Of a stretch of DNA of 63,145 nt, positions 3,699-62,199 are shown in pieces (the first letter of the stretch is position 1; the number at the start of each line of letters is the position of its first letter). The notes beneath the pieces were generated by a model. The model was not told the origin of the DNA. It was given only the letters and a program-made list of their open reading frames with translations, and did no database searches. The DNA is taken from NCBI GenBank assembly GCA_964430735.1, contig CAYSFB010000012.1, positions 1 to 63,145 of the forward strand, given 5' to 3'. The DNA is from an uncultured Planctomycetia bacterium. Its GTDB lineage: Bacteria > Omnitrophota > Gorgyraeia > 2-02-FULL-51-18 > JAGOUK01. The translations under genes were made by a program, and so were the position numbers.

Positions 3699-3725
3699 GT
3701 GAGCTTCCCCGATGAGTTGATGAAA

Positions 3726-10942: not shown

Positions 10943-10954
10943 ATAAATCAGACG

Positions 10955-39264: not shown

Positions 39265-39269
39265 GGTTT

Positions 39270-44999: not shown

Positions 45000-47566
45000 T
45001 CCAGGCCCGGCGATTCCCCGCATGGGCCGCGTGGGCGGCGGCCGTCCTCGTCGCCGGAGCCGCCGGCGTTTACTTCCGCCTCTATCCCCTGACGGTTTTT
45101 CCGCACGACCTGTCCCAAAACAACGCGAAGGTTCTGGTCATCTCCAAAATGCGGCAGACGGCCGCGGAAGCGATCGGGCGGCGCGAACCGGGCCTGCCCT
45201 CCGTCGAGCGGCTCCGCCGCGCGAACGCGGTCGTCGCGCAGAACCTTAAGTCCGACCCTGCCGGATTCAAACGCGCTCTCGCCCGACAGACGCAGGCGCT
45301 CGAGCGCGCGATGCGTGCTGAGACCCGTGGCGGATTTTTGCTCGAAGTCGATCCCTACTATTACCTGAGCCAGACCGAACGGATTCTTAAAACGGGTCGG
45401 TTGGCGGAGCAAACCCGCGGCCGTGAATTCCTGAATCTGATGACGCTTGCGCCGGCCGGATATTGGTATCCGATGGATCTGCATCCTCAGATCGGAGCCT
45501 GCCTCGTCCGCATCGTCCGGATTACGCTTCCGAATGTCGACACGGTGGCCGTCGTCCGCTGGATTCCTCTCCTGGCGGCGTTGGCGGCGTTGGCGGTCTT
45601 CGCCGCATTTTGCCGGCGCACGGCCGGCGTCACCGGATGGGCCGGATTCGCGGGCCTGTCTTATCTGATGCTGTGTCCGATGTTTCTCAAGCGGAGCTTG
45701 GTCGGATGGTACGACACCGACCCCTACAACGTGCTCTTTCCGCTGGCGGCCATCGCCGGCATCTTCACCGCCTTCGGACCGGCGGCTTCCTCGCGTCAGC
45801 GCTGGATCGGCGCGGCCGGAGCCGGCGCGGCCTTCGCGCTGCACGCTCTGTTCTGGCGCGGTTGGCTGATTCCGTTCCTGGTGCTGTTCCTGCTGACGGC
45901 GGCAGGGTTGGCCGTTCCGCGGCGCCTGAGACCGGACGGACTGACCGTGCGGCTGCAGGCAGCGCTGCTCCTGCCCATCGGGCTCATTCCCCTCGCCGCA
46001 CTGACCGTCGTCTGGGGCTTCACGGGCCTCGGACAGGAAGCGGCGTCGGCCATCGATTTTATACGCGGTTTTCTCAAGCCGGGCTTCCAGCCCTGGCCGG
46101 ACGTTTTTATCACGGTGGGTGAGCTCAAACCGATGGGCTTCTGGCGTCTCACCCAGCTATTGGGCGGACCGCTTTGGGTGATCGCCGCTGTCGGCGGACT
46201 CGCGCTGGCGATCGCGCGCCGAATCCGGTCGGCGGACAAAGAGCCTTCCCGGCTCATCCCGATGATCGTTCTTTTGGGTGCGACCTGCGTCTGTCTCATC
46301 GTCTCGGTGCGGATCCAGCGCTTCGCCATTCTCGCGGCCGCGCCCCTGGCTGCGGCCATGCCGTTCGCCTGGGACGAATGGCGCCGACGCGCCGTCGCCG
46401 CGTTGCCGCACATCTTCGCCCCGCACGCCGCGCAGGCGATCGCTGCCCGCTTCCGGCTGATCTGGCCGGCAGCCATCATCGTTTCGCTGACGTTCCTCGG
46501 CGTCCGCGCGCATGCTGAGACCGTCCATTTTTACCCGCTGTACAACACGACCTGGGACCGGATGATGACGCAGGTCCGGACCCAAACACCCGAGGACGCG
46601 ATCATCACCAGTTGGTGGTCTCCGGGACATTTCCTGACATCCATGGGCGGGCGGCGCGTGACATTCGACGGGTCGAGCCAGAACGAGCCTCAGGCCTATT
46701 GGACCGCGAATCTCTTTTTGGAAAATTCCGAACGCGCCGCGCTGGGCATCCTCCGGATGCTCGACATTTCGGGCAACGCGGCGGTGGATCACTTGACCGC
46801 GCGCGGTTTTTCGATCGCGGACTCGGTCGACCTCATCCGCTCCGTGCTTCCGCTCTCCCGCAAGGACGCGCACGACAAGCTGACCCGCCGGTTCACCGCG
46901 GAAGAAGCGGACGCGCTGCTGGATTTGACGCACGGCCGGGCCATTCCTCCTCCCGCCTATCTTTTCGTCTACAACCACATGATCGAACAGGCGCTCGCTC
47001 TCGAATTCATCGGACGGTGGAACTTCCGCAAGGCGGAGGCGTTCGAACAATACCTCAGAGAACAGCCGGATGAAGTGGACCGCCGCCTGCTCACGCGGGC
47101 CACGCCCCAAAACACCAAACTGCTGTGGACGTTGAGTGAAAAACCGACCTTTTACGAAGGTGAAGGTTACCAGGTCGCGGCGAATGGGGACTTTGTGATC
47201 TTTTCAAACGGAGTGCGGCTGAACCTTAAAACCTGGGACGCCGAGATCCGGGGCAACCAGCATGTGAACGGCCGGCCGGTCAGCGTTTTCCGGATCAACG
47301 CTCGGAACGAGCTCGTCGAAACGCCCGTCGCTGAGCCGACCCTCACCGTTTCGGTGCTGCTGATTGAGGACTCCAAGCCCGGAGCTCCTTCCACTTACCG
47401 CTCGGTGATCATGGGCCGTCGGTTCGCCGGGTCGGTCGCGATGCGGCTTTATTATCTGGGAGGGCGCGGGCTGAAGATGATCCGGCAGGCCGCAGCGGAA
47501 GATTCGGCGGCGACCCGTACGCGCCTCGGACTGTTTGAAGTAGATTGGAAGCGGTTCGATTCTTAA
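44996..47566 (+). CDS. STT3/PglB/AglB-like oligosaccharyltransferase (GT-C fold), variant WWSPG motif
   Basis: 856 aa, about 13 TM plus a soluble C-terminal domain. Motifs in order: EVDPYYY (D119), RSLVGWYDTDPYN (D240/D242), TVGE (E376), SWWSPGH (aa 539-545). GTGA overlap with the S41 peptidase stop. Confidence 0.68.
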   Translation: MIQARRFPAWAAWAAAVLVAGAAGVYFRLYPLTVFPHDLSQNNAKVLVISKMRQTAAEAIGRREPGLPSVERLRRANAVVAQNLKSDPAGFKRALARQTQALERAMRAETRGGFLLEVDPYYYLSQTERILKTGRLAEQTRGREFLNLMTLAPAGYWYPMDLHPQIGACLVRIVRITLPNVDTVAVVRWIPLLAALAALAVFAAFCRRTAGVTGWAGFAGLSYLMLCPMFLKRSLVGWYDTDPYNVLFPLAAIAGIFTAFGPAASSRQRWIGAAGAGAAFALHALFWRGWLIPFLVLFLLTAAGLAVPRRLRPDGLTVRLQAALLLPIGLIPLAALTVVWGFTGLGQEAASAIDFIRGFLKPGFQPWPDVFITVGELKPMGFWRLTQLLGGPLWVIAAVGGLALAIARRIRSADKEPSRLIPMIVLLGATCVCLIVSVRIQRFAILAAAPLAAAMPFAWDEWRRRAVAALPHIFAPHAAQAIAARFRLIWPAAIIVSLTFLGVRAHAETVHFYPLYNTTWDRMMTQVRTQTPEDAIITSWWSPGHFLTSMGGRRVTFDGSSQNEPQAYWTANLFLENSERAALGILRMLDISGNAAVDHLTARGFSIADSVDLIRSVLPLSRKDAHDKLTRRFTAEEADALLDLTHGRAIPPPAYLFVYNHMIEQALALEFIGRWNFRKAEAFEQYLREQPDEVDRRLLTRATPQNTKLLWTLSEKPTFYEGEGYQVAANGDFVIFSNGVRLNLKTWDAEIRGNQHVNGRPVSVFRINARNELVETPVAEPTLTVSVLLIEDSKPGAPSTYRSVIMGRRFAGSVAMRLYYLGGRGLKMIRQAAAEDSAATRTRLGLFEVDWKRFDS

Positions 47567-48264
47567 GAAGCTTCGGTCCGGTTTTTGGCTTTTTCCGTAT
47601 AGATCAGATACTCCAGCCTCCGGGCCTGATCCTGCCGGCCCAAACGTCTCATCTCGGTGACAGCGTCCAGAGCCAAGTCGGTCCGACCCGCATAAACAGC
47701 CGTCACACCGATCAGTTTGAGCGTTCGCATAGAATCGGGATTCACGGCCCGCGCCTTTTCAAGCGACGCGAACGCAGCGTCCCAGTTTTTTTTCCGGTAA
47801 TAGATTCCCGCGAGTTCCTGGTGGGCCGCTTCGAAAGACGGCTTGATCCGGATCGCCTCCAGATAGCGCTCCTCCGCCTTGTCGTTCTCACCGATCGCAG
47901 CATAGGCCTTGGCCAGTGTATACAACGTCTTGGATTGACCCGGCTCTCTCCGCAGAGCTTCCTCCAAATGCAGCACCGCCGATTCGTATTCCTGGGTTTG
48001 GACATAAATGAGACCCAAGCTGTGATGGATCGCCGGGATATCGGGGGCGAGCTCCAGCGCGTCCATAAACGCGCGTTCCGCTTCAGCGTACCGCTTCGCG
48101 TTGAGAAGGCGGTTGCCCTTTTCGTAGAGAGCGGTGACACGCTGACGGTTTTCGGGGGAGATGCTTTGGACGGAAGAGCGGGCGGAGAAGTCGGTCTGAG
48201 CCCAGGAAGGTGTCGCCGCCGTCAGCACAACGGCGGCGCAGCAAGAAACGATCAGGCGGGTCAC
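47563..48264 (-). CDS. TPR-repeat protein (PilF/PilW-like), last gene of the T2SS-like array
   Basis: Signal sequence MTRLIVSCCAAVVLTAATPSWAQ. About five TPR units (YAEAERAFMDALELAP, YESAVLHLEEALRREP, DKAEERYLEAIRIKP, WDAAFASLEKARAVNP ...). Confidence 0.75.
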   Translation of the reverse strand: MTRLIVSCCAAVVLTAATPSWAQTDFSARSSVQSISPENRQRVTALYEKGNRLLNAKRYAEAERAFMDALELAPDIPAIHHSLGLIYVQTQEYESAVLHLEEALRREPGQSKTLYTLAKAYAAIGENDKAEERYLEAIRIKPSFEAAHQELAGIYYRKKNWDAAFASLEKARAVNPDSMRTLKLIGVTAVYAGRTDLALDAVTEMRRLGRQDQARRLEYLIYTEKAKNRTEAS

Positions 48265-48899
48265 GCCAGGTTTTTGAGCCCCAGCTTCACGATCGAAAAT
48301 CTGAAACGCAGTTCGTCGTTGGCGGCGCCCTGCCCTCTCAGGCTGAATCCCGCGATCCGGATCGCGGGGTTGGATTGCTCCAGAGACGCCATGAACTGCT
48401 TGATGTTCGAGATGCTGCCGGCCCCTTCCACATCGACTTTAAGGGAGTAAGCCGTGCCTGCTTCTTCGGCCTGCACGGGATTGATGTTGGAGATGAACAG
48501 TCCGACGCTCTGGGAAACGCGTTCGATTTCGCCGAGGTAAGCGGCGATCTCCTCCTCGCGCGAAAGCGCGGGGTCGGTCAAATAGCCGGACAGGGATTCG
48601 TAGGTCTTCTCGATCTGGTCTTTTTTACCCAGGACGGCCAGCTTCTTCGGGATGAGGTCTTCCTTCTGGCGGATCGTCGCAGAGAGCTTGTCCAAATGAC
48701 GGCCCAGGGGCTTGAACATGATCCAATCCATCACGAAAAACATCAGGATGAACGCCGCGACTGCGGCGATCGTCTTCTCCCGCGGCGAAAGCTTGGCGAT
48801 AAAAGCGAGCGGATTGGCTTTGGGCTTGGGTGCGGCTTCCGGCGCTTTTGCGTCAGTTTTTTCGGGGTTCGTTTGGTCGGTCGGGGCAGCGTTCGCCAT
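48261..48899 (-). CDS. PilO/GspM-like bitopic assembly protein
   Basis: Cytoplasmic N-terminus, one TM (TIAAVAAFILMFFVMDWIMF), coiled coil, then a ferredoxin-like C-terminus (GLFISNINPVQAEEAGTAYSLKVDVEGAGSISNIKQFMASLE). Position is after the PilM-PilN-like gene. Confidence 0.6.
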   Translation of the reverse strand: MANAAPTDQTNPEKTDAKAPEAAPKPKANPLAFIAKLSPREKTIAAVAAFILMFFVMDWIMFKPLGRHLDKLSATIRQKEDLIPKKLAVLGKKDQIEKTYESLSGYLTDPALSREEEIAAYLGEIERVSQSVGLFISNINPVQAEEAGTAYSLKVDVEGAGSISNIKQFMASLEQSNPAIRIAGFSLRGQGAANDELRFRFSIVKLGLKNLA

Positions 48900-48903
48900 C
48901 GGA

Positions 48904-50346
48904 TCAGACCTCCTCTAAATTGGCGCTCAGGCCGAAGTCCGTCATGTCCTTACCATCCACTTTTCGGCTTTTGGCATAATCGTTTTTGACGTTCTTGAAG
49001 ACCGGGTTGTTCTCAAATTCGGTGACGAACGAAAACACCCTCGACATCAGCTCCGAAGTGCCCTTGATGGCGACCTTGCCTTCGGCGTCGACGCTCAGTT
49101 CATTCAAATACATCTCCCGGGGGAGGGCTGTTTCCAGCTGAGTCAGCGCGCGCAGACCGGAACCGCGCTTGGCTTCAAACTGGCGGATCAACGCGCTCTG
49201 GTCCGACAAACCGATCAGACGTTCCGCCTGCTGGTTCTTGGCCGCAAAGTTCTTGTCGAGCGCGCCGATGTAGGAAGACTTCAGGTAGACCTTCGCGACG
49301 AACACGCCGAGGAGCAGCGCCGCGATGATCATCGCGAACGTTGCAGCCGCAAAGATCTGCTGGGCCCGCCCGCGGAAGCTGCGGCGGGTTTTGAGGTCGT
49401 CCGGAATAAAATCCATCGCCGCCGGACGGCGGAGAACGGCCGGAAACAGGACCGCGTCCATGGGCGACTGGAACATTTCGGATTCCGAGGCGCGGGCCTG
49501 GGAAGTGGCGGCCACGTGATCAGCCGCGCGCACCTGCTCGAGCGGCAGGCCGCAGGCACTTTTCACTTCGGCCGCAAGCTGGGCGATGTCGGACGAGTCG
49601 GGCCCGATCAACAGAAGTTTCTGAAGCGAGCGGTTGGGTTCGGCGGACTGAAACGCCTCGATGGATTTCTGAATTTCCGCGGCCAGCTCGCGCCGGCTGG
49701 CGACCTGCTGGAGCTGCTTGGTGCCGATGCCGACGCTGCGGACGAAAAACGGCTTGGATTTGCACATGACGATCAAGTCGGCGTGCTCCACATCAACCAG
49801 CACGGCTCCGGTGACGTCCCCATCGGCCACCAGACCGGCTTCGACCAGTCCTTGCGCCACACCCTCAAACGCGACTTCGACCTTGCCGATTTCGACCCCG
49901 GCCAGGCGCAGAACATCGAGGTGCTTGCGAATATTGCCCAGGGAAATGATGACCAGGAGCGCCTTGGTGTAGCGCTCAAGCACCTCTTCGAGATTGAGGT
50001 GGTTGCAGATGATTTCGTCTTTGGAATACGGGGTATGACGGCTGGACTGGAGCTTGACGATGGCTTCGATTTCCTGCGGATCGAAGGAAGGCACTTCCAC
50101 GCTCTTGGTGATCGCAAACTTGGAGGTCACCACGACCCGGGCCGGCACGGACCCGGCGCGGACGGCGGCAAGCCCGCGCACCGTCTCGTCCACAAGCCCG
50201 TTTTCGTCGAGCGCGGAGACGTCGGAATAAAATACGTGCTGGATCTCGGACTTTCCCTGCTGTGTCCGGACGGTCGCCATTTTGAGCGAAACGCCGTCAA
50301 GGTACACAACCAGCTCATCCTGCCGCAGGAACGGAAGATTGCTCAT
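48904..50346 (-). CDS. PilM-PilN fusion / GspL-like assembly protein
   Basis: Start at ATG 50346 (ATGA overlap with the gspK stop). Actin-like PilM pattern (...VEVPSFDPQEIEAIVKLQSSRHTPYSKDE..., LRLAGVEIGKVEVAFEGVAQGL, VLVDVEHADLIVMCKSKPFFVRSVGIGTKQL). TM IFAAATFAMIIAALLLGVFVA, then a PilN-like periplasmic domain. Confidence 0.65.
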   Translation of the reverse strand: MSNLPFLRQDELVVYLDGVSLKMATVRTQQGKSEIQHVFYSDVSALDENGLVDETVRGLAAVRAGSVPARVVVTSKFAITKSVEVPSFDPQEIEAIVKLQSSRHTPYSKDEIICNHLNLEEVLERYTKALLVIISLGNIRKHLDVLRLAGVEIGKVEVAFEGVAQGLVEAGLVADGDVTGAVLVDVEHADLIVMCKSKPFFVRSVGIGTKQLQQVASRRELAAEIQKSIEAFQSAEPNRSLQKLLLIGPDSSDIAQLAAEVKSACGLPLEQVRAADHVAATSQARASESEMFQSPMDAVLFPAVLRRPAAMDFIPDDLKTRRSFRGRAQQIFAAATFAMIIAALLLGVFVAKVYLKSSYIGALDKNFAAKNQQAERLIGLSDQSALIRQFEAKRGSGLRALTQLETALPREMYLNELSVDAEGKVAIKGTSELMSRVFSFVTEFENNPVFKNVKNDYAKSRKVDGKDMTDFGLSANLEEV

Positions 50347-51419
50347 GAAGACTCCATCCATCTTTGGATTCCGCGGCGCAGACCGTAAACGCTCATGGTC
50401 TGACCGCGGGATTGTTTGGCCGACGCCTCAACGACGACGGAAAAATAATTCGAACTCAAGGCCACTGATCTTTTTGCAAACGCATGCCTCAGAGAAACCT
50501 GTTCCTGAAGCCTGAGGCCAAAGGCTGATTTGAGTTTGAGCTCCAAATCCGCCTGACTCTGAAAAACAACGTCATCCGCCGTTCCGCTGATTTCGTCCGG
50601 CCCCGCCCGCAGCGCAAGAATCTTGGTTCCGACGCCGGGATGCAGATCCAGCAGACTGATCAGCTCGGGGCCCGCGGAGTTCAAGTTCACCGCGCCGTCC
50701 CCGTAGACCGTGACATAAAACCGGATGCGGGCGTAAATCTCCCGGGTCATTCCCGGCAACCGCAGAAGCTCGGACACAAACTCGTAATCCGAATTTTTGG
50801 GCGGATAATTCAGCCCCGCCGCATGATACCGGGACTCTTCCGAGCCCCCGGCACCGACAGTTGCGGTCACCGCATCGTCGGCATCCCGATAATCCACTAT
50901 CTGACCCGCGAGGTCCGCGGCCGCTTCACTGTCGAGACCAGCAGCCGTCAAAAAACGCATCAAAAAAAACCTGTCTGCGCGGTTCAGATTTATTTTTCGA
51001 GACTCGTCCATTATACCATAAGTAGTTGTCTGTTTCTGTCTATTCGAGTCAATTTCCGCCTGATTTTGTTCAAATACAGAAATACCCGCTTGGTTTTGCT
51101 GGTCATCCGGTGGAGGAGGGAGCGGCACGACCGGCTTGAACATCGCCTGGTTTAGCTCCCCTTCGGCATACTGGGCGACCGCATAGGATTCCTGCAGTGA
51201 AAACGGCGCTCCTGGCTCCCGCACCCTCAGATGATCGATCGCCGACTTCACCCCGGCTTCCGCCGCCAGTCGCACCCGCTCGCGCTCATCGAGCTTTTGA
51301 AAGAAAAACACGTTTTGCCGTACTTTACCGGCCAGCGTAACGGCCAAAAAAGCGATGAAAGCCGTCGTCCACAGGACGAGGATCAGCACACTGCCCCGGC
51401 GGCCCCATGACCCCCTCAT
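50343..51419 (-). CDS. gspK: Type II secretion minor pseudopilin GspK
   Basis: RRGSVLILVLWTTAFIAFLAVTLA. DESRKINLNRAD. YPPKNSDYEFVSELLRLPGMTREIYARI. GAVNLNSAGPELI (the HhH-like repeats typical of GspK). Confidence 0.78.
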   Translation of the reverse strand: MRGSWGRRGSVLILVLWTTAFIAFLAVTLAGKVRQNVFFFQKLDERERVRLAAEAGVKSAIDHLRVREPGAPFSLQESYAVAQYAEGELNQAMFKPVVPLPPPPDDQQNQAGISVFEQNQAEIDSNRQKQTTTYGIMDESRKINLNRADRFFLMRFLTAAGLDSEAAADLAGQIVDYRDADDAVTATVGAGGSEESRYHAAGLNYPPKNSDYEFVSELLRLPGMTREIYARIRFYVTVYGDGAVNLNSAGPELISLLDLHPGVGTKILALRAGPDEISGTADDVVFQSQADLELKLKSAFGLRLQEQVSLRHAFAKRSVALSSNYFSVVVEASAKQSRGQTMSVYGLRRGIQRWMESS

Positions 51420-51991
51420 GCTTCCTCCGTCCCGACAGGAGCGGCCGGAATCCGCACGTCGCGCGACAAAACCCGCGGTCCGAACCGGCCCTCGTAATCC
51501 ACTCGAATTTTGACGCGGCGCGGGATTTGACCGGGTTCCATTTCGTACTCGAACCGGACGGCGCTCACCCGGCTCATCACCGTTTCGGTTTTTGACGCTT
51601 CCGGAACTTCGAACGTCTGAGGCCGGACCGCTTCCCGGACCAGCCGACCCGTTTCCGCGTCATAGCGGTAGCTCACCTGGATCGGCGACGGGTCAGGCGC
51701 ACCGGCGACCGCCGACAGATCTTCGAGCGAAGCGAAGCTCATCCGGTCTTCGGCGCCTTCAAAAGGAATCAGGGAATAAGCGTTCATGCCGCGCAGGTCC
51801 CGCGTCATCTTGACCATGCCGACGGCGGCCGCCTCCTCCTGAGAGGCCGCGGAGAGCTTGGAAAACATGCGGATGCCCTGCGTCATGAAAACGGCAATCG
51901 TCGCGGCGGAGGCGAGCAGGAGCGCGGAGGCGAGCAGGAGTTCGATCAGCGTGAATCCGGAACGGTCCGGACGGCCGTTAGTTGGCGACAT
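51416..51991 (-). CDS. Minor pseudopilin, GspJ-like
   Basis: Start at ATG 51991. Prepilin-type N-terminus DRSGFTLIELLLASALLLASAATIAVF. 191 aa. ATGA overlap with gspK. Confidence 0.7.
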   Translation of the reverse strand: MSPTNGRPDRSGFTLIELLLASALLLASAATIAVFMTQGIRMFSKLSAASQEEAAAVGMVKMTRDLRGMNAYSLIPFEGAEDRMSFASLEDLSAVAGAPDPSPIQVSYRYDAETGRLVREAVRPQTFEVPEASKTETVMSRVSAVRFEYEMEPGQIPRRVKIRVDYEGRFGPRVLSRDVRIPAAPVGTEEA

Positions 51992-52370
51992 AGGCCGATC
52001 GCGAAAGCCCTGCGGTTCCCTCGCCCATCCAGTTGACCGTGGTCCGAAGCTCGACAAGCGACCCCGCCTGATTCACGGGCAGCGTTTCGATGCGGTAGCG
52101 GAAAGGAGTGCCGTTTTCGACGACTTCTCCTTCGAGCGGAAGCGCGCGGAGGCTGCGGTCCGCCTTGAAGCGGAATTCGGCATCGACGATGAGGTTATTC
52201 AGCACATTTTCGGCGTCAGCGCGCTGGTACAGGTAGCGGAGATGATCGGACGACCGCTGCAGCGCCGGAAGCGCGAGCAAAGCACCGGCGGCCAGAAGCG
52301 TGATGGCCATCAGCACTTCGACGAGCGTGAACCCCCGAAGCGACTTATTGCCAGTTGGCAATCCAGACAT
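51978..52370 (-). CDS. Minor pseudopilin, GspI-like
   Basis: Start at ATG 52370. Prepilin-type N-terminus SLRGFTLVEVLMAITLLAAGALLAL. 130 aa. Overlaps the gspG 3' end by 26 nt. Confidence 0.7.
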   Translation of the reverse strand: MSGLPTGNKSLRGFTLVEVLMAITLLAAGALLALPALQRSSDHLRYLYQRADAENVLNNLIVDAEFRFKADRSLRALPLEGEVVENGTPFRYRIETLPVNQAGSLVELRTTVNWMGEGTAGLSRSAYVAN

Positions 52371-52764
52371 CCGGATTCGACTTGTCGCGTCCGTACGAGT
52401 ACAGGTCGTATCCGACTCCATGCGTGCCCGGATTGGCGTATTGGTAAGGTTCGCCCCAGGGATCGATGGGCTTCTTTTCGAGATAAGGCCCGTTCCAGTT
52501 GCGGGGCGCCGGCGGCGACGTCGGTTTGACGAGCAGCGCCTCCAGCCCCTGAGCCGTCGTCGGAAACATTCCATTGTCGAGTTCGTACAGCTTGAGAGCG
52601 GAAGCGATGTTCGCGCTGATGTCCACTTGCGCAACGGTGACGAGAGCCCTCTCGCCGCGTCCCGCCAGTCTCGGGACCACCATGACGGCCAAAGCGCCGA
52701 TGATCATGACCACGAGCAAAATTTCGATGAGCGTAAATCCGCTCGTACTTTTTAATTTCTTCAA
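52345..52764 (-). CDS. gspG: Type II secretion major pseudopilin GspG
   Basis: MKKLKSTSGFTLIEILLVVMIIGALAVMVVPRL ... ALKLYELDNGMFPTTAQGLEALL ... GPYL...PIDPWGEPYQYANPGTHGVGYDLYSYGRD (T2SSG signature). Confidence 0.93.
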   Translation of the reverse strand: MKKLKSTSGFTLIEILLVVMIIGALAVMVVPRLAGRGERALVTVAQVDISANIASALKLYELDNGMFPTTAQGLEALLVKPTSPPAPRNWNGPYLEKKPIDPWGEPYQYANPGTHGVGYDLYSYGRDKSNPDVWIANWQ

Positions 52765-52776
52765 TTTATCTCCTTC

Positions 52777-54024: not shown

Positions 54025-54027
54025 GCG

Positions 54028-55752
54028 TTAGACGGTTCCTATGCTGGCGACGTTGATCACCTCACCGGTGGTGGTGATGCCTTGCAGCACTTTGCCCCAT
54101 CCGTCCTGCAGCAGCGTGAGCATGCCCTCGGAAGCGGCTAGAAGCTTGATGTCCTGGGCCGACGCCTGCCGGAGGATCGCTTCCCGGATCGGATCCGTGA
54201 CGGTGAGAATTTCGTGCAGGGCCGTTCGGCCGTAAAAGCCGGTCTGATTGCATTCGGAGCAGCCGCGGCCCACCCAGGTCTTGACCGGGTCGCCTGCCGG
54301 AAGCCGAAGGTCGCGGCGGATGCGGTCCCGGATCGGCTGCGGTTCAAACGAGTTCTCCTCCTTGCAATGAGGGCAGATCACGCGGACCAGGCGCTGGGCG
54401 ATGACGGCCTGAACGCTCGACGCGATCAGGAACGGTTCGACGCCGATGTCGACCAGCCGGTTGAATCCGCTCGCGGCATCGTTGGTGTGCAGCGTCGAAA
54501 AGATCAAATGCCCGGTGAGCGCCGCGCGGATGGCGATCTCGGCCGTTTCGAGGTCGCGGATTTCTCCGACCATCATGATGTCGGGGTCGTGGCGCAGCAT
54601 GCTCCGCAGTCCGCTGGCGAAGGTTAACCCGACCTTGGGCTGGACCTGGATCTGCGTGATGCCCTGAATGTCGTACTCGATCGGATCCTCGAGCGAAATG
54701 ATCTTGAGGGAGTCGGAACGGATCTGATTGAGACAGGTGTAGAGCGTTGTGGTCTTGCCGCTGCCGGTCGGTCCGGTGAGCAGAACGATTCCGTGCGGAC
54801 GGTTGATGAGATCGTTGACGATCTCCACGTTTCCGGGCGTGAGGCCCAGCCGGCCCAGGTCGAAGGTCAGTTCGGTCTTCAGCACGCGGACGACGATGCT
54901 TTCGCCGTAAGGCGTGGGAATGCACGAAACGCGCAGATCGAGTTTTTCGTCCCCGATCTTCACGATCGCGCGGCCGTCCTGGGGCAGCCGGTGCTCGACG
55001 ATGTCCAGATTGGACATGATCTTGATGCGCGAAATGATCGGCAGGATGAGCGCGCGAACCTTTGCCGGCAGGTTGGCGTCGCTGAGAATGCCGTCGATCC
55101 GGTAACGCAACCGGAACTGGCCTCGGTACGGCTCCAGATGGATGTCGGTGGCGCGCTTTTTATAAGCTTCGAGAATGATTTCGTTGACCAGACTGATGAC
55201 CGACGCATCGCCCGCCATCTGGTCGGCGGTGGCGATGCTGTTGACCTCGACGTCGTCACGCTGGGTGTCCGCATAGGAGGAGGAAACGATCTGATCGACG
55301 GTTCCTGCCGCCATTCCGTACGCGCGGCGGATCAACTCCTGGATCTCTTCGCGTTTGGCCAGAATCTGCTCGACGGCGAATCCGGTCTGCATCCGAATCT
55401 CGTCCTGGGTCTTGAGCGTGACCGGATAGTGGCAGGCAATGGTCAACCGGTTGCCCTCGATCCGGATCGGGGCGAATTGATAATGCGCCGCAACTTTGAT
55501 CGGGATCCTTCGAACGAGCTCTTGCGGGATCTGCACGGCAGAAAGGGTTTCGTACGGAATATTGAGTTGGCGGGACAGAACGGGATACAAAGCGTCCGGC
55601 TGGGATCCAAAGTCCTGGCAGAGGTGCTCGATCAGGGGCCGGCCGGTCTTTTGGGAGCGGTTCAAGGCTTCCTCAAGCGACCGCCGGTTGACGATCCCCT
55701 CTTCCACCAGACGATTGCCGAACGTGGTGTCGATACGGATGTCGGAACGCAT
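54028..55752 (-). CDS. gspE: Type II secretion / type IV pilus assembly ATPase GspE/PilB
   Basis: 574 aa. N-terminal GSPII_E_N-type domain. Walker A LLTGPTGSGKTTTLY. Asp box, Walker B IMMVGEIRD, His box LTGHLIFSTLHTN. Tetracysteine CPHCK...CSECNQTGFYGR. Confidence 0.95.
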   Translation of the reverse strand: MRSDIRIDTTFGNRLVEEGIVNRRSLEEALNRSQKTGRPLIEHLCQDFGSQPDALYPVLSRQLNIPYETLSAVQIPQELVRRIPIKVAAHYQFAPIRIEGNRLTIACHYPVTLKTQDEIRMQTGFAVEQILAKREEIQELIRRAYGMAAGTVDQIVSSSYADTQRDDVEVNSIATADQMAGDASVISLVNEIILEAYKKRATDIHLEPYRGQFRLRYRIDGILSDANLPAKVRALILPIISRIKIMSNLDIVEHRLPQDGRAIVKIGDEKLDLRVSCIPTPYGESIVVRVLKTELTFDLGRLGLTPGNVEIVNDLINRPHGIVLLTGPTGSGKTTTLYTCLNQIRSDSLKIISLEDPIEYDIQGITQIQVQPKVGLTFASGLRSMLRHDPDIMMVGEIRDLETAEIAIRAALTGHLIFSTLHTNDAASGFNRLVDIGVEPFLIASSVQAVIAQRLVRVICPHCKEENSFEPQPIRDRIRRDLRLPAGDPVKTWVGRGCSECNQTGFYGRTALHEILTVTDPIREAILRQASAQDIKLLAASEGMLTLLQDGWGKVLQGITTTGEVINVASIGTV

Positions 55753-55777
55753 ACTGGGTTGCCGGGGCAGGACCGGC

Positions 55778-57241
<1,464 letters not shown>

Positions 57242-58099
57242 TTAGGCGGGCGCGTTGACCATCATCGCAGTCACCGTCTCGCGGAGACTGGCGTCGATCA
57301 ACTCGCGGCGAGTTTTGACGAACAGCAATTTGAGTTTTTTCTCGAGCTCGTCCAGGTTCTGCAAGCTGCCGTCCAGCTGCATGGCCTGTGCGGCATACTC
57401 GCTGAGCTTGTTGTCCTGGAAGAGGGCGATCAGTTTATAGATGATCCAGATTTCCGACAGGTATTCCATGATCGCGTCGATGTGGGTTTCCTGACAGAAC
57501 AATTCGTCCTTATCGGGCCGGGTGTCTTCGTTTTTTGGATAAACGTCGTGGGCCGGAAGCAGCGTGACCGCGCGGATTTCCTGGGTTGACAACGACACCG
57601 GATCGGCGTAAACCGCGATCACTTTTCCGAACTCCTTTTCCCTGACTTTTTGCGTCACAAAATCTTTGATCTGCGTCGCGACCTCGTGCATGTTCTTGTC
57701 CCGGAATCCTGGAAAAATGGTGTATGGGACACGCTCCTGCTTTAACCGCCCGATCATGCGCGGACCGGTGATCACAAAATGGCAGGGGCGGTTCTCGACT
57801 TTTTCGCGGGCGACCTTGATGACCTTGTTGTTCAATCCCGCCATGAACGACTCGTTGGATGTGATCGCGATCATGCAGATCACCCCCGAATCGGGCTGGA
57901 CGAATGAACTTTTTGTCTTGGAGTGGTCCGCCAGCTGGAAAAAAGTGTTGAACGATGTCGTAAAACGGTCGAAACGCTTTTCGCGCTTCTTTTTTACCTC
58001 AACGAACGACGACATGGCGATGCCCTTCATCGTCCCCATGATCTGCTTCATGTTGGACGCTACGAACCGCTCATTGGCGACGACCGGCAGTGTGGGCAT
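57242..58099 (-). CDS. atpG: F1-ATPase gamma-subunit homologue (divergent)
   Basis: N-terminus MKQIMGTMKGIAMSSFVEVKK (cf. ITKAMEMVAASKMRK). C-terminus LSEYAAQAMQLDGSLQNLDELEKKLKLLFVKTRRELIDASLRETVTAMMV (cf. SEQAARMVAM..A..N...L...L.L.YNKARQAAIT.EL.EIV). Confidence 0.75.
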   Translation of the reverse strand: MPTLPVVANERFVASNMKQIMGTMKGIAMSSFVEVKKKREKRFDRFTTSFNTFFQLADHSKTKSSFVQPDSGVICMIAITSNESFMAGLNNKVIKVAREKVENRPCHFVITGPRMIGRLKQERVPYTIFPGFRDKNMHEVATQIKDFVTQKVREKEFGKVIAVYADPVSLSTQEIRAVTLLPAHDVYPKNEDTRPDKDELFCQETHIDAIMEYLSEIWIIYKLIALFQDNKLSEYAAQAMQLDGSLQNLDELEKKLKLLFVKTRRELIDASLRETVTAMMVNAPA

Positions 58100-58128
58100 T
58101 CAGCGCCTTTGGTTAAACGTCCGGAGCC

Positions 58129-58875
58129 TTATTTGGCCGCGTATTTCCAGGTCAATCCCTGTTTCATCTGCAGGGCGCTTTCGTTGACGCGCTCCGCGAG
58201 ACTTCCGTCGACGACCATCGTTCCGATTTTCATCAGAATACCGCCGAGCAGCTTGGGATCTTCGTTGCTGTACAGACGGACCTGACGGCCGAGCTTCGCT
58301 TGAAGCAGAGTCTTGATCTTTTCCTGATCGTGGACCGCCACAGGCATGCTCGAAATGATTTCGATTTCGTTGACGTCGCTGTTGATCTTGGTGAGATCCG
58401 CCTTCTCAAGCTCCGCAATGAACTCCTCGACGAGCTTTTCGTTCATCTGGGCCTGGACCACGGTCGTAAGTGTCTTGTTCAGAATTTCGGCGCAAATGTC
58501 GATCATCTTGCCTTCGGCCTCGATCATCGCGTCCGTGCGGATCTGCTCCTTGGTCGCCTGCGCCTTGCGGATGATGTCGTCCCCTTCTTCCTTGGCCTTG
58601 CGGATGATGTCCTCGTGCAGCTGGTTGGCGGCGCGACGGGCTTCGGCCTTGATGCGCTGTTCTTCGTCCTGGATGACCTGCTTTTGTTCGTCAATCTGCT
58701 TCTGGGCCTGTTCGAGCTTCCGCGCGAGCAACTTTTCCTTCTCGCGGTTCATATTGTCGAGTTTTGTAAGGCGGTTGATCGCGCTGTTCGTATCCGAAAA
58801 GATCAGACGGCGAAGCAGGGTGATCACCACACCGAGGATGAGGATCTGGGCAAGGACGAATCCGATAATCAGCAT
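58129..58875 (-). CDS. Fused b-like (TM + coiled coil) and delta/OSCP-like C-terminal stator subunit
   Basis: N-terminal TM MLIIGFVLAQILILGVVITLL. Charged coiled coil about 100 aa (EKEKLLARKLEQAQKQIDEQKQVIQDEEQRIKAEARRAANQL...). The C-terminus ...DPKLLGGILMKIGTMVVDGSLAERV resembles the delta-subunit end (..LIGG..V.VGD.V.DGS....L). Confidence 0.68.
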   Translation of the reverse strand: MLIIGFVLAQILILGVVITLLRRLIFSDTNSAINRLTKLDNMNREKEKLLARKLEQAQKQIDEQKQVIQDEEQRIKAEARRAANQLHEDIIRKAKEEGDDIIRKAQATKEQIRTDAMIEAEGKMIDICAEILNKTLTTVVQAQMNEKLVEEFIAELEKADLTKINSDVNEIEIISSMPVAVHDQEKIKTLLQAKLGRQVRLYSNEDPKLLGGILMKIGTMVVDGSLAERVNESALQMKQGLTWKYAAK

Positions 58876-58890
58876 GGGATATGGCTCCGT

Positions 58891-59106
58891 TTAGTAGAGT
58901 TTGACCAACTGGAAAAAAACCAACAACGATACGATGATGAGGCACTGATTGAATATCAGCAGTGTCACCATTCCGATCAGAATCACGGGTCCCGACGAGG
59001 GGTTCCGCGAGAGCGCCTTGACGGTCGTGTGACCTATGATCGCGACGACTCCGGAAGGGCCCAGGATCGCCGCAGTCGTAACCAGAAACAAAATGATGAT
59101 GTCCAT
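58891..59106 (-). CDS. F-type ATPase c-subunit-like hairpin protein lacking a membrane carboxylate
   Basis: 71 aa: MDIIILFLVTTAAILGPSGVVAIIGHTTVKALSRNPSSGPVILIGMVTLLIFNQCLIIVSLLVFFQLVKLY. Two TM helices with a polar loop SRNPSS (cf. ARQPE). No Asp or Glu in helix 2 (only N54/Q55). Confidence 0.62.
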   Translation of the reverse strand: MDIIILFLVTTAAILGPSGVVAIIGHTTVKALSRNPSSGPVILIGMVTLLIFNQCLIIVSLLVFFQLVKLY

Positions 59107-59116
59107 AAAAACCCGG

Positions 59117-59374
59117 CTATCCGGCCGCCGGTTCGTCGGACTCGAACTCTTCGGCGAGTATCAGACACTTGTTGTCATTGAAGGCTACGATCCCCGCCTT
59201 GACCGGAATCGCAATCTTGTTGTTAATGATGATGTCTCCCGCGCGCAACAGCCCCAGCGTCTTCGAATGGAAGCTCATAAGCTCGTATTCCGACTCGTCC
59301 CCGTCGATCAGCACCCGCTCCACCGCGTCCTCAAATATAACCCGCTTGGGAGTCACGATCGTCAGGTCAAACAC
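59117..59374 (-). CDS. atpC: F1-ATPase epsilon-subunit homologue, beta-sandwich domain only
   Basis: 85 aa: MFDLTIVTPKRVIFEDAVERVLIDGDESEYELMSFHSKTLGLLRAGDIII...VKAGIVAFNDNKCLILAEE matches the epsilon N-terminal domain pattern. The C-terminal helical hairpin is absent. Confidence 0.75.
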   Translation of the reverse strand: MFDLTIVTPKRVIFEDAVERVLIDGDESEYELMSFHSKTLGLLRAGDIIINNKIAIPVKAGIVAFNDNKCLILAEEFESDEPAAG

Positions 59375-59375
59375 G

Positions 59376-60872
59376 TCAGGCCCCGCTTTTTGCCGGCGCG
59401 GGCGCGGCGGCTTTTTCTTCGGTCGAAATGAAGCGGGTCAGGTAATTCCGAAGATGCGTTTCGATGCCTTCCTTGATCTTGTCGGTGAGCTTCCGCTCGG
59501 TTCGAATCGTGCGCAGAAGATCTCCCGCGTTCTCCCTCAAGTATCCGGAGATATCGCGCTTGAACTCCCGGACCTGATCCATATTCAAAGGCATCAGCAT
59601 CTTGTTGTTGTGCGCGTAGTAAATGAAGATCTGCTCTTCCTGCGGAACCGGATTATCCTTGTCCTGGGTGATGAGTTCGACGAAGATTGAACCGAATTTG
59701 AGCTGATCCTGAACCGATTTGGAAATATCGCTCGACAGTTTGGTGGATTCGACCAGCTCGCGGTATTGAAGATAGTCGAGGCGGTAGGTCTTGGTCATCG
59801 CCTTCATGATCGACCACTGCACCTTCGTTCCGATGCGGGAAACGGAGAGCCCCAGGTCCAGCGCCGGCTTGAAGCCCTGCGCAAAAAGCTTGAGATCCAG
59901 ACAAATCTGGCCGTCGGTCATCGACACCAGGTTCGTGATGACGTAGCTGGTGATGTCGCCTTCGAGTGTTTCCATGAGCGGCAGGAAAGTCATCGACCCG
60001 CCGCCGCGCTTGGCGTCGAGCTGCGCGGCACGTTCGATCATCTGTGAATGGAGATAAAAAATATCGCCCGGATACGCGTTGCGTCCCGGGGGGCGGCCGA
60101 GGAGAAGCGACAGCTCGCGGTACGCCCAAGCATGTTTCGAGAAATCGTCGAACACGACAAAAACGTCCTTGCCGCGATACATGAAGTATTCGCCGAGCGA
60201 GCAGGCGACATACGGCGCGAGGTACTGCTCACCCTGCGAAGCGGATGCGCCGGCGGAAAGAATGATGGTGTAATCCAGGCAGCCGTGACGGTTGAAAAGT
60301 GCCGAAACGCGCTTGAGGGACATCTCGGCTTTTCCGATGTCGACGTAGATGCAAACGACATCCTTGCCCTTCTGATTGATGATCGTGTCCGTGCCGATGG
60401 TTGTCTTACCGCTCATACGATCTCCCGTGAGCAGCTCGCGCTGGCCGCATCCCAGGGGAATCATGGAATCGATGATCTTAATGCCGGTTTCGACCGAGCG
60501 CTCGAGGGGTCCGCGGGACATGATCGGAGGCGAGTCGCGGAAAATCGGATAATGATCGTCCGCCTTGACCGGCCCCTTGCCGTCGCGCGGTTCGCCGAGC
60601 GCCGTGGTGATACGGCCGATAAAATTACTTCCGACGGGGGTCGTGAAAGGTTCAAGCGTCGTTGCAACGCGGTCGCCTGCGCCAATGGCTCCGCGCTCTT
60701 TGAGAATCAGGACCTGAGCGTACTTTTCGGTGAAGCCGATCACCATGCCGCGTGACCCGCCGCCCAGGTCCACCAACTGTCCGTAAATGCAGTTCGCCAG
60801 ACCTTCGACCACGATCACGCATTGTTTTTTACTGACGACGGTTCCGAATTCTTTGTATTTAAAAAATGACAT
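59376..60872 (-). CDS. atpA: F1-ATPase alpha-subunit homologue (divergent)
   Basis: GQRELLTGDRMSGKTTIGTDTIINQKG (cf. GQRELIIGDRQTGKTA). YLAPYVACSLGEYFMYRGKDVFVVFDDFSKHAWAYRELSLLLGRPPGRNAYPGDIFYLHSQMIERAA. GGGSMTFLPLMETLEGDITSYVITNLVSMTDGQI. GLSVSRIG. Confidence 0.9.
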   Translation of the reverse strand: MSFFKYKEFGTVVSKKQCVIVVEGLANCIYGQLVDLGGGSRGMVIGFTEKYAQVLILKERGAIGAGDRVATTLEPFTTPVGSNFIGRITTALGEPRDGKGPVKADDHYPIFRDSPPIMSRGPLERSVETGIKIIDSMIPLGCGQRELLTGDRMSGKTTIGTDTIINQKGKDVVCIYVDIGKAEMSLKRVSALFNRHGCLDYTIILSAGASASQGEQYLAPYVACSLGEYFMYRGKDVFVVFDDFSKHAWAYRELSLLLGRPPGRNAYPGDIFYLHSQMIERAAQLDAKRGGGSMTFLPLMETLEGDITSYVITNLVSMTDGQICLDLKLFAQGFKPALDLGLSVSRIGTKVQWSIMKAMTKTYRLDYLQYRELVESTKLSSDISKSVQDQLKFGSIFVELITQDKDNPVPQEEQIFIYYAHNNKMLMPLNMDQVREFKRDISGYLRENAGDLLRTIRTERKLTDKIKEGIETHLRNYLTRFISTEEKAAAPAPAKSGA

Positions 60873-60873
60873 A

Positions 60874-62199
60874 TTAAGCCTTGTGCGCCTCGTATTTGCG
60901 GTTCAATTTTGCCTTGGACTGGCCCCACCAGAGCGCATAGAACATAAGGCCCAGGACCGTCAAAAATCCGATGAATCCGTAGATGATCTTCCAAGTGGTC
61001 GACACATCCGGAGTCGCAGGTTTGATGTAGTACGGCAGCGTTTGAGGAACGGGATGCTCGATCTCCTTGACGAGCTCCTTGAGCTTTTTCTCGGCGTCCT
61101 CGACCGCGTTGAAACGGGTCAGGTTCAGGCTGAAATTGGAGATCATGTCCGCCGGATTCTCATACTTGACCTGAAGTTCCTTGATCTGCACGGAAAGCCG
61201 TTCGAGCTCGGCGAATATCTTGTTTCCGGTTTCTTCGTACTGGGATCCCTTTAATTTTTCTTGATGGCTCTGAGCCAGCTTGACGATCTGATCCAGCTTT
61301 TCTAACGGTATCTTCCAAGCATTTTTAAAAACGATGGTCGCAGACACCGTCTCGGATGGCTTCAGATCCATTTCGCGATACAGATAATAAAGTTCACGCT
61401 CGGGGTCGAATTTCACCTCGAAGCCCTGAGCGTCGATGATGTCGGTCGGAGCGACTCCTCTGGGGAGATAGCGGATGACCTTTTGCTTATGCAGCTCTTC
61501 AGACATCGGATTCTTAATCTGGACCGCCATCTTAACCGTTTCGGCGGTTTCGGCGATGCTGCCGGCCCAGCGGGCCTGCTTGACGAAGTCCGTCATCACG
61601 GTGACCCGGCTGCGGATCTGGTCGATTTTATCGGATGCGATCCGGTGCATTTCAATGCGTTGCGGAATCGTCATTTCTTCAGCCTGCGCCTTTTCGATGT
61701 CAGCCAATTCCTTCATCGTTTGGTCCGCCAGGCGCTGACCGGCCTGGTAATCGTCGGTATCCTTTAAAAACTCCAGACGGCTCTGGGTCTGCTTCTTCAA
61801 GAAATCGATATCCGCCTGGGGAATCTGCCAGATATCGCGGACTACAACGCGGTAATTCTTGGATTCCTGCGGCTGTAAAACATTCTCGCCGTACAGGAAT
61901 AATGCCGAACGTTTGTCATCGTAGCGAATCTGAAGGCCGGCGCTGTCCAACACGTCTTCTTTAGAAAGCTCTGCAGGGAGGTATTGAACAATCGGAGTGT
62001 CCTGAGGCTCTGTAGACGCATTCTGCGTCTTGAGATTCATGATCAGGCTCTCGGCTGCCTCGGCTGGTACAGGTGTTGCAGTCTGCAACGCTACAGCAAC
62101 AAGGAACGGGGCCATAGCCCTGAGCGAACTCCATTTTAGGAAGCGCTCAACGCCAGTCGAAGCAACCCTGTTGTGTTTTAAACAATTGCCGTTTGACAT
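60874..62199 (-). CDS. Hypothetical exported protein with internal ~95-aa duplication, coiled coils and a C-terminal TM anchor; first gene of the ATPase/T2SS-like array
   Basis: Hydrophobic leader MAPFLVAVALQTATPVPAEAA. Repeats at aa 70-165 and aa 241-336 (IVQYLPAELSKEDVLDSAGLQIRYD... vs VIRYLPRGVAPTDIIDAQGFEVKFD...). TM WKIIYGFIGFLTVLGLMFYALWW. Stop 1 nt before the alpha-subunit ATG. The start codon is uncertain. Confidence 0.6.
   Translation of the reverse strand: MSNGNCLKHNRVASTGVERFLKWSSLRAMAPFLVAVALQTATPVPAEAAESLIMNLKTQNASTEPQDTPIVQYLPAELSKEDVLDSAGLQIRYDDKRSALFLYGENVLQPQESKNYRVVVRDIWQIPQADIDFLKKQTQSRLEFLKDTDDYQAGQRLADQTMKELADIEKAQAEEMTIPQRIEMHRIASDKIDQIRSRVTVMTDFVKQARWAGSIAETAETVKMAVQIKNPMSEELHKQKVIRYLPRGVAPTDIIDAQGFEVKFDPERELYYLYREMDLKPSETVSATIVFKNAWKIPLEKLDQIVKLAQSHQEKLKGSQYEETGNKIFAELERLSVQIKELQVKYENPADMISNFSLNLTRFNAVEDAEKKLKELVKEIEHPVPQTLPYYIKPATPDVSTTWKIIYGFIGFLTVLGLMFYALWWGQSKAKLNRKYEAHKA

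Follow-up and report, generated by a model that had tools for sequence, protein, structure and literature searches.

An F1-like ATPase gene set embedded in a type II secretion-like operon of Omnitrophota: a candidate motor of a giant-protein surface apparatus

The locus analysed here raises the question of why the genes of an F1-like ATPase are inserted into an operon encoding a machine similar to a type II secretion system (T2SS). It lies on contig CAYSFB010000012.1 (assembly GCA_964430735.1) of an uncultured bacterium placed in the phylum Omnitrophota; the whole stretch of 63,145 nucleotides that was analysed is referred to as the window. Rotary ATPases are normally ion-coupled energy converters, and the generation of force and the retraction of filaments in type IV filament systems and T2SSs are still debated. 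The comparison of gene neighbourhoods indicates that the modules for the ATPase and the pseudopilus form a single conserved unit, far beyond what chance would produce. The same comparison indicates that a membrane protein, named X, and a giant repeat protein, named BIG, are obligate partners, fused to each other in one lineage. On balance, it is probable that the ATPase is an ATP-hydrolysing, non-chemiosmotic F1-like motor serving a T2SS-like and giant-adhesin apparatus linked to cyclic di-GMP (c-di-GMP). To our knowledge, F1 has been re-used for surface machinery only in the wall-less mycoplasmas. A motor of this kind would bring the same re-use to ultra-small diderms of a widespread phylum, and to the world of type IV filaments and T2SSs.

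The gene array and its conservation

Sixteen successive genes occupy positions 47563-62199 of the minus strand, with intergenic gaps of -26 to +29 nt, recomputed using the gene starts called in the identical public contig L001. The gene for beta is separated from gspE by 25 nt. A seventeenth gene on the same strand lies upstream of X across a gap of 122 nt and occupies 62322 to the end of the window; it encodes the C-terminus of BIG. From its upstream end, the array consists of the following genes:

62322-63145, minus strand (runs off the window end): C-terminal part of the giant repeat protein BIG; in most related loci phmmer finds a homologous C-terminus ahead of X (151-654 bits)
60874-62199, minus strand: X, a bitopic membrane protein of 441 residues; no Pfam or NCBIfam family; described from an AlphaFold2 model
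59376-60872, minus strand: F1 alpha-like subunit; ATP-synt_ab 222 bits and ATP-synt_ab_C; TIGR00962 atpA 516 bits (cut-off 484)
59117-59374, minus strand: epsilon-like subunit of 85 residues, N-terminal beta-sandwich only; Pfam ATP-synt_DE_N at residues 2-76
58891-59106, minus strand: c-like two-helix hairpin of 71 residues; transmembrane helices 3-21 and 41-59; no Pfam match, assigned by alignment with E. coli c
58129-58875, minus strand: b-delta fusion stator; ATP-synt_B (weak) and OSCP profile positions 66-169; transmembrane helix 2-20 and a coiled coil
57242-58099, minus strand: divergent gamma-like central stalk; Pfam ATP-synt 97 bits
55778-57229, minus strand: F1 beta-like catalytic subunit; TIGR01039 atpD 519 bits (cut-off 463)
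54028-55752, minus strand: assembly ATPase of the GspE/PilB type; Pfam T2SSE 426 bits; NCBIfam GspE 566 versus PilB 555 bits
52777-54024, minus strand: inner-membrane platform protein of the GspF type; GspF 343 bits, PilC 248 bits
52345-52764, minus strand: major pseudopilin of the GspG type; TIGR01710 144 bits (cut-off 89); Pfam T2SSG
51978-52370, minus strand: minor pseudopilin, GspI-like; prepilin N-methylation motif and a weak gspI match; start taken from the gene call in L001
51416-51991, minus strand: minor pseudopilin, GspJ-like by position; prepilin N-methylation motif only
50343-51419, minus strand: minor pseudopilin of the GspK type; Pfam T2SSK_1st; NF037980 GspK 83 bits (cut-off 130)
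48904-50361, minus strand: PilM-PilN fusion with a GspL-like architecture, from Pfam and NCBIfam; one transmembrane helix, 336-354
48261-48899, minus strand: GspM/PilO-like bitopic protein, from Pfam and NCBIfam
47563-48264, minus strand: TPR protein (Pfam) with a signal-like N-terminus, last gene of the array; a TPR gene occupies the same place in L002, L004, L006 and L019

The open reading frames (ORFs), gene order, Pfam assignments and gaps all agree with a first-pass annotation of the window, which had described sixteen tightly packed minus-strand genes. The annotation had placed the limits of the unit at 47563-62199; these genes are there, but the unit continues upstream into the conserved gene for BIG.

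X, the F1-like set and GspE, with or without GspF, occur together in all 23 of the 23 related loci that extend past beta. The beta subunits of these loci are 51-100% identical to that of the window, and the loci represent about a dozen non-redundant lineages. The same layout is present in L037 and in one further place that is listed without DNA. The loci comprise the contexts of eight homologues of beta or X, those of two X-domain proteins from an exhaustive search, and the results of genome and metagenome scans with an alignment of X; all were annotated with one phmmer pipeline. The scans used a single peptide pattern and gave 9 and 11 loci, and the counts are a sample rather than a census.

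The order of the ATPase genes differs among lineages. It is alpha-epsilon-c-bdelta-gamma-beta in the window, epsilon-c-bdelta-c-alpha-gamma-beta in L018, and epsilon-bdelta-c-alpha-gamma-beta in L021 and L033, with a response-regulator gene between beta and gspE in L021. Despite this internal reordering, the set is always located between X and gspE. The fixed position is what selection for linkage predicts, unlike chance adjacency, and the null hypothesis of the first-pass annotation, that the two modules are neighbours by chance, is not upheld. Three further features are found in many lineages and are missing from the window: a second c-like paralogue, a PilZ domain on GspE, and a Peptidase_MA_2 gene that follows gspF.

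The gene block is strongly conserved in tiny predatory or parasitic Omnitrophota. All named homologues of beta and X belong to metagenome-assembled genomes (MAGs) of Candidatus Omnitrophota or Omnitrophica, with one exception. A MAG labelled 'uncultured Planctomycetia bacterium' contains a near-identical locus (L010, CAZHID010000017.1) with a beta subunit 92% identical to that of the window. As all other named relatives are Omnitrophota, L010 has probably been given the wrong taxonomic label or been binned wrongly.

The pairing of the two modules has a precedent. Seymour et al. (2023, Nat Microbiol, PMC10066038) described non-respiratory 'symbiotic' F-type ATPase clusters that adjoin clusters of type IVa pilus (T4aP) genes in Omnitrophota, and the earlier statement that no such system had been described does not hold. 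Of 66 contigs, 57 had the ATPase and T4aP sets at most 10 kb apart, and every class of Omnitrophota had such loci (PMC10066038). The arrangement was seen in 56 of 111 species of Velamenicoccia, including V. archaeovorus LiM, and the 'symbiotic' alpha subunits were separated from a 'respiratory' clade (PMC10066038). The main text and term searches of the supplement gave the alpha phylogeny and the co-location counts, and nothing about X, BIG, a secretin or which subunits the enzyme has.

The loci of Seymour et al. and the window share the phylum, the position of an F-type ATPase next to a type IV filament cluster (25 nt away here), and the judgement that the ATPase is non-respiratory. The role proposed for them was attachment to host cells or motility on them (PMC10066038). 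Their pilus part was classified as T4aP with TXSScan, whereas the major pilin of the window passes the GspG equivalog model and GspF, GspK, GspM and GspC models give the best matches. Their alpha subunits grouped with the ATPases of Type 2 and of Type 3 from mycoplasmas, whereas alpha and beta of the window fail the cut-offs of those families. The family scores do not support a particular closeness of alpha and beta to these two kinds of mycoplasma enzyme. The pairing was thus already noted in 2023, and what is worked out here is the anatomy of the locus: the absence of an a subunit, the altered stator, X, BIG, the embedding between gspCD and gspE, and the links to c-di-GMP. This anatomy turns a brief genomic remark into testable hypotheses.

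Components of the array

The alpha and beta subunits are 38% and 43% identical to those of E. coli (reference subunits from NC_000913.3). Alpha contains the P-loop GDRMSGKT and retains the arginine finger (SVSRIG). Beta contains the P-loop GGAACGKT and the catalytic glutamate in GERLREG, and has EELSTTD in place of DELSEED. The alignment with E. coli shows that the P-loop lysine and threonine, the beta catalytic glutamate, the Walker-B aspartate and the alpha arginine finger are all present. ATP hydrolysis should be possible because the catalytic residues are intact. The best sequence matches of alpha and beta in the PDB are canonical bacterial F1 subunits (454 and 424 bits).

Other features depart from the canonical enzyme. 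Alpha is about 20 residues shorter at its N-terminus than E. coli alpha, in which the N-terminal segment binds delta. The b-delta fusion retains only the C-terminal part of the OSCP/delta domain and is missing the N-terminal domain of delta, and the attachment of the stator is therefore altered. Its best NCBIfam match is subunit b of N-ATPases (TIGR03321, full length, 51 bits, cut-off 225). Epsilon, already recognised as truncated in the first-pass annotation, consists of the N-terminal domain alone and has no C-terminal helical domain (TIGR01216 40 bits, cut-off 67, profile positions 1-82 of 130). In ordinary enzymes the missing domain inhibits hydrolysis. Gamma fails its family model (TIGR01146 68 bits, cut-off 194). 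A 2026 preprint found alpha and beta in 125 of 176 complete Omnitrophota genomes and gamma in 30 of 176, and read this as an incomplete F1Fo. The divergence of gamma, which falls below family thresholds, suggests an explanation for the low gamma count and for the 'incomplete F1Fo' of surveys based on KEGG orthology. The 2026 preprint also reports subunits of V/A-type ATPases in 70-99% of genomes of most Gorgyraeia.

The secretion module is termed T2SS-like within the type IV filament superfamily. This label is used because GspG passes its equivalog model, T2SS models are the best matches of GspF, GspK and GspM, and there is no second ATPase of the PilT type. Most components score below their equivalog cut-offs; GspG is above. 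Each locus has one ATPase of the T2SSE family, and its PilT-family score is 180 bits against a cut-off of 319. An identity as a T4aP was considered and rejected, as there is no second ATPase of the PilT/PilU type and the major pilin is of the GspG type, not the PilA type. Residues 11-62 of GspE match the MshE-type c-di-GMP motif with 26.8 bits, which is under the cut-off of 38 bits.

Two components of a T2SS are missing from the array. No gene of the array or of any related locus was annotated as a prepilin peptidase (GspO/PilD), which may be encoded elsewhere in the genome. The first-pass annotation had also remarked on the missing secretin. This is true of the window but probably not of the system, since the related locus L016 has GspC (T2SSC 33 bits) and a secretin (Secretin 168 bits) upstream of BIG. 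The absence of the secretin from the window is probably an assembly limit, because the secretin of L016 precedes BIG and contigs break within BIG: the BIG gene is where the window ends, as do its twin L001 and no fewer than 12 other distinct contigs, 12 kb to 1.59 Mb long, so that the upstream side lies beyond their ends.

Most lineages encode a zincin-like Peptidase_MA_2 protein between gspF and gspG, which is not present in the window. Its positions in three relatives are:

L004, 13335-14096: Peptidase_MA_2 gene
L006, 12263-13066: Peptidase_MA_2 gene
L019, 14389-15213: Peptidase_MA_2 gene

The part of BIG contained in the window has degenerate 13-residue repeats (..GINW.D..) followed by a helical region and the end ..VETTWEAGE*. 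The terminal motif is conserved in relatives as VVVKTYFESGE, AQVETTWEAGE or PVVEGWFEKK. In the main lineages, BIG has from 20 to at least 89 copies of the 13-residue repeat (..SDAGINW.D.D.L..), which correspond in the DNA to near-perfect tandem repeats of 39 nt. TRF detected no tandem repeats in the window part of BIG; the perfect repeats are located beyond the window end and are visible in L004. The near-perfect repeats explain why contigs end at BIG, and they form a systematic assembly breakpoint. Full-length or longer versions of BIG have 1324 residues with a LamG-like domain (L016), 3017 residues and a beta-rich composition (L018), at least 3083 residues (L019) and at least 3203 residues (L032). 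The predicted structure of the BIG C-terminus, for which one homologue was retrieved, has a predicted local distance difference test (pLDDT) score of 34 and is unusable. BIG was located in relatives as follows:

L004, 1-1005: BIG gene or region
L016, 5931-9905: BIG gene or region
L019, 3-4706: BIG gene or region

The order of genes in L016 is GspC, secretin, a TPR or coiled-coil protein, three small secreted paralogues, BIG, X, ATPase and GspE, with the genes upstream of BIG at L016 199-5906. At least in the lineage of L016, a complete T2SS-like operon is interrupted between its outer-membrane and inner-membrane halves by BIG, X and the ATPase. The three secreted paralogues, each about 190 residues long, are possible substrates or fibre components.

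X has a signal peptide or N-terminal helix, two modules that each combine a beta-sandwich with a helical bundle, a C-terminal transmembrane helix (TTWKIIYG...) and a short cytoplasmic tail. The two modules are homologous and represent an internal duplication (E=3e-17). The AlphaFold2 model has a pLDDT of 79. A Foldseek comparison of the model with the PDB gave nothing with E < 1e-3, just generic overlaps of beta-sandwiches, and no function can be read from the fold. X adjoins the F1-like genes in all annotated related loci that extend past beta. The family is large and unnamed, with 952 clusters at 50% identity, 810 of them with E <= 1e-10, in an exhaustive profile search.

X proteins differ in what is attached to them. 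Stand-alone forms have about 420-480 residues, and forms of about 610-690 residues add a cytoplasmic GGDEF domain. The GGDEF domain follows the transmembrane helix in all five tested homologues of 610-692 residues (P0151, P0154, P0159, P0186 and P0193), and also in L018 (9738-11675). In some lineages, giant proteins of 1167-3748 residues (P0160, P0161, P0268, P0271 and P0279) have the X domain and its transmembrane helix at their C-terminus. In L037 (GCA_028710245.1), positions 197-11035 encode a BIG-X fusion of 3612 residues, in which the C-terminal motif of BIG is joined directly to one X module and the transmembrane helix. It is followed directly by epsilon, c, b-delta, alpha, gamma, beta, an MshEN-only protein, a GspE-PilZ protein and GspF. 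The fusion indicates that BIG and X act together, with BIG tethered to the inner membrane beside the ATPase by the transmembrane helix of X.

GspE carries a PilZ domain, which is C-terminal, in L002, L004, L006, L023 and L037. Response-regulator genes are present in L021 and L037, and L037 has the MshEN-only gene. The copy of the module in the window has no GGDEF domain, PilZ domain, response regulator or MshEN-only gene. The GGDEF fusions, the PilZ domain on GspE and the MshE-like motif together tie the module to c-di-GMP.

Ion coupling and the role of the ATPase

The membrane part of the ATPase determines whether its rotation could be coupled to ion flow. When E. coli AtpB was compared by phmmer --max with every six-frame ORF of the window and of 19 related loci, the best E was 0.59. 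No match to ATP-synt_A was found among the called genes of L021-L024 and L037 or the ORFs of the window. These results bear out the earlier report that the window has no a subunit; Pfam scans of the window ORFs also gave no secretin and no V-type ATPase.

The c-like protein retains the polar loop RNPS, and an alignment with E. coli c and relatives places a glutamine at the position of E. coli cAsp61. The c-like proteins of relatives give weak matches to ATP-synt_C. Glutamine at this site is confined to loci whose beta shares at least 69% identity with that of the window, and all other lineages have glutamate. This distribution indicates that the glutamine is a recent, lineage-specific E-to-Q change. 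The first-pass annotation was right that the c-like subunit of the window has no carboxylate, but this is not a trait of the module, as distant relatives keep the glutamate. The replacement of the carboxylate by glutamine in a c subunit is known to abolish proton transport. That the whole module is intact in the window lineage, where the carboxylate is missing, speaks against an essential role of ion binding in its function.

In most distant lineages a second c-like hairpin paralogue, 78-98 residues long, is encoded between c and b-delta; it is absent from the window lineage. It carries a glutamate in most of the loci that encode it. Examples are:

L004, 6286-6531: second c-like paralogue, usually with a glutamate in helix 2
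L006, 5275-5571: second c-like paralogue, usually with a glutamate in helix 2
L019, 8094-8330: second c-like paralogue, usually with a glutamate in helix 2

An enzyme without an a subunit would have no ion half-channels. Together with the glutamine of the c-like protein, this would preclude coupling between rotation and ion flow, and the complex would then run as an ATP-hydrolysing motor. The first-pass annotation had considered the ATPase unfit for ordinary chemiosmosis, and the missing a subunit, the glutamine in place of the c carboxylate and the truncated epsilon agree with this assessment.

In the proposed mechanism, the F1-like insert would form an alpha3beta3 assembly with a divergent gamma, an epsilon without the inhibitory domain, a c-like ring and a membrane-anchored b-delta stator, and with no a subunit. 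The c-ring, the b-delta stator and probably X would constitute the membrane part, beside the inner-membrane platform of the T2SS. The motor may perform work on the BIG/X tether, on the pseudopilus platform, or on both, and could extrude the giant adhesin, display it or move it while the cell attaches to a host or prey cell. It is probable that c-di-GMP gates the system, considering the X-GGDEF fusions and the GspE-PilZ proteins of many lineages and the MshE-like motif of GspE in the window. The Type 2 and Type 3 F1-like ATPases of mycoplasmas, which power gliding legs and MIB-MIP rather than make ATP, are a functional precedent.

A more specific version, which we regard as a tentative and rather doubtful possibility, is that the a-less F1/c-ring rotary ATPase is mechanically wired to the pseudopilus machine and to BIG-X, as an ATP-driven motor that extrudes, reels in or moves the adhesin. 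If this were so, it would be the first such motor of a diderm and the first case known in which a rotary ATPase is paired with a type IV filament system.

Several observations weigh against an ATP-driven motor serving the secretion and BIG apparatus. An a subunit could still be encoded elsewhere in the genome, as the search covered the window and the related loci. The c-ring glutamate is kept in most lineages, many of which have a second paralogue that also bears a glutamate, and this is unexplained if ions are not involved. Alpha and beta still qualify as ordinary atpA and atpD by the equivalog cut-offs of NCBIfam. A conserved membrane-embedded arginine or lysine that could replace the a subunit as a stator was sought in X, b-delta and the c paralogues, and none was seen. 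We infer the coupling of the ATPase to the secretion and BIG apparatus from synteny and gene fusions. Furthermore, the downstream neighbour of the X-domain giant P0160, on the short contig L036, is not an ATPase gene.

The alternative that survives best, although it is unlikely, is an ordinary but divergent F-type ATP synthase or ion pump, with its a subunit encoded elsewhere and the operon shared for co-expression or genome compaction. The family and PDB matches of alpha and beta favour it, as do the c-ring glutamate of most lineages, the presence of c, b-delta, gamma and epsilon, and the counting of such genes as F1Fo alpha and beta in the 2026 survey. However, the a subunit was found neither in the window nor in related loci, the c-like protein of the window lineage has glutamine, epsilon has no regulatory domain, and both the delta-binding segment of alpha and the N-terminal domain of delta are missing. 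It is also at odds with the block remaining between gspCD/BIG/X and gspE across deep divergence, despite rearrangement. Moreover, Seymour et al. set a 'respiratory' clade apart (PMC10066038), and V/A-type ATPases are common in the phylum.

Next comes an ion-translocating rotary ATPase with a non-canonical stator, in which X, GspF, the second c-like protein or the transmembrane helix of b-delta would take the place of the a subunit, and an ion gradient and secretion work would be interconverted. We consider this improbable. It would account for the glutamates conserved in the c-ring of most lineages and in the second c-like protein, and the transmembrane helix of b-delta contains a conserved glutamine. 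Nevertheless, no conserved arginine or lysine within the membrane was seen in X, b-delta or the c paralogues, and the window lineage, with its glutamine and without the second c, keeps the module, so that ion binding is dispensable.

FliI, FliJ and FliH are homologous to alpha/beta, gamma and b-delta, respectively. The first-pass annotation drew an analogy with them. Spelled out, the ATPase would serve in the cytoplasm as an unfoldase, or would energise an export gate, and so deliver the giant protein or the pseudopilins to the export apparatus. The analogy is weak and this reading very improbable, even though the ATPase is encoded between a cargo-like giant protein and a secretion ATPase: alpha and beta reach 144 and 186 bits on FliI/SctN models, with rounded cut-offs of at least 380 (379.5 for TIGR01026), but pass atpA and atpD; they are of the heterohexamer type with a c-like membrane ring and an anchored stator, whereas the ATPases of type III secretion systems have neither; no gate proteins of such a system are present; and the Sec-type N-terminal signals of the full-length BIG of L016 and of X mean that no special inner-membrane export ATPase is required.

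Related systems and the remainder of the window

Among known systems, those of mycoplasmas resemble the proposed ATP-driven motor in function. The mycoplasma Type 3 'F1-like X0' ATPase is required for the MIB-MIP surface system. As in the window, the Type 3 enzyme and the Type 2 'G1' enzyme of M. mobile gliding (PMC3369863, PMC12994834 and PMC11864180) have an F1-derived set of alpha, beta, gamma and epsilon without a, and serve a surface machine rather than ATP synthesis. They are likewise encoded together with non-Fo membrane proteins, and the output of the M. mobile motor consists of giant surface proteins. A large mycoplasma protein encoded next to alpha combines a signal peptide with extracytoplasmic globular domains and one or more C-terminal transmembrane helices; X is similar in architecture, and X itself matched no sequence family and no known structure.

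The differences are also considerable. The seven-gene mycoplasma clusters encode a protein with 12 transmembrane helices and a small cytoplasmic protein but no c, b or delta, whereas the window encodes a c-like protein and b-delta and no 12-helix protein. Alpha and beta of the window fail the M. mobile gliding families (369 versus a cut-off of 600 and 402 versus 850 bits) and the Type 3 families (282 versus 520 and 414 versus 570 bits; NF045863, NF045858, NF045936 and NF045934). Beta scores 323 bits against M. mobile G1-beta (9io5) and 424 bits against canonical F1 beta. In addition, the partner of the ATPase here is a T2SS-like system of a diderm cell.

Canonical F1Fo shares with the window enzyme the families of alpha and beta and the recognisable gamma, epsilon N-terminal domain, c hairpin with a polar loop, and elements of b and delta. 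It differs from the window in its a subunit, complete and separate delta, delta-binding segment of alpha, full-length epsilon and c carboxylate, and in its gene order, while the set described here is embedded in a secretion operon. N-ATPases (atpDCQRBEFAG) are similarly a second, divergent F-type enzyme without a separate delta, and b-delta best matches their subunit b. However, the alternative alpha, beta and gamma families of N-ATPases are not reached (453 versus 750.5, 442 versus 752 and 29 versus 282 bits, respectively), AtpQ, AtpR and a are not present, and the order beta-epsilon-Q-R-a-c-b-alpha-gamma is not matched.

The secretion part resembles a T2SS in having GspE, GspF, GspG, proteins similar to GspI, GspJ and GspK, a PilMN fusion in place of GspL and a GspM-like protein, with GspC and a secretin in L016. 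It departs from a T2SS in the insertion of a rotary ATPase and a giant tethered protein, and no prepilin peptidase is annotated in the locus; PilZ, response-regulator and Peptidase_MA_2 components are additional in relatives. Loci similar to T2SSs in the vicinity of giant genes, with gspD and rcpC, were described by West-Roberts et al. (2023), in which an ATPase is not mentioned.

Matches to promoter-like and terminator-like consensus sequences are no commoner than in shuffled sequence, and none is located at the junction of beta and gspE; such background-level matches are no proof of co-transcription. The 122-nt gap between BIG and X folds no better than shuffled versions of it (z = +0.76). 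An Rfam scan of the window gave only two tRNAs and no riboswitch. The G+C content is 0.51-0.58 in the half of the array with the ATPase, X and BIG (55778-63125, compared with 47563-55752), versus about 0.60-0.64 in the other window genes sampled, with nearly equal G+C at third codon positions. A horizontal origin of the ATPase half was considered on the basis of its lower G+C and is unconvincing, since third positions differ little and the proteins are rich in coiled coils; amino-acid composition is a likelier explanation than recent transfer.

The remainder of the window encodes housekeeping and envelope proteins, for example MMPL, AcrB, enolase, a PurN-like protein and a PKD protein. Envelope-related genes include:

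20465-22912, minus strand: protein of 815 residues with six PKD domains
37657-41687, minus strand: VWA protein, followed by a TPR protein of 805 residues
42114-42953, minus strand: protein of the MotA/ExbB family

A gene for an oligosaccharyltransferase-like protein of the STT3 type, with 856 residues, lies on the plus strand at 44996-47566. It runs convergently towards the last gene of the array, the TPR gene, with which it shares 4 nt, and a neighbour of the same type is found in the relative L002. The STT3-like protein might glycosylate the pilins or the giant protein.

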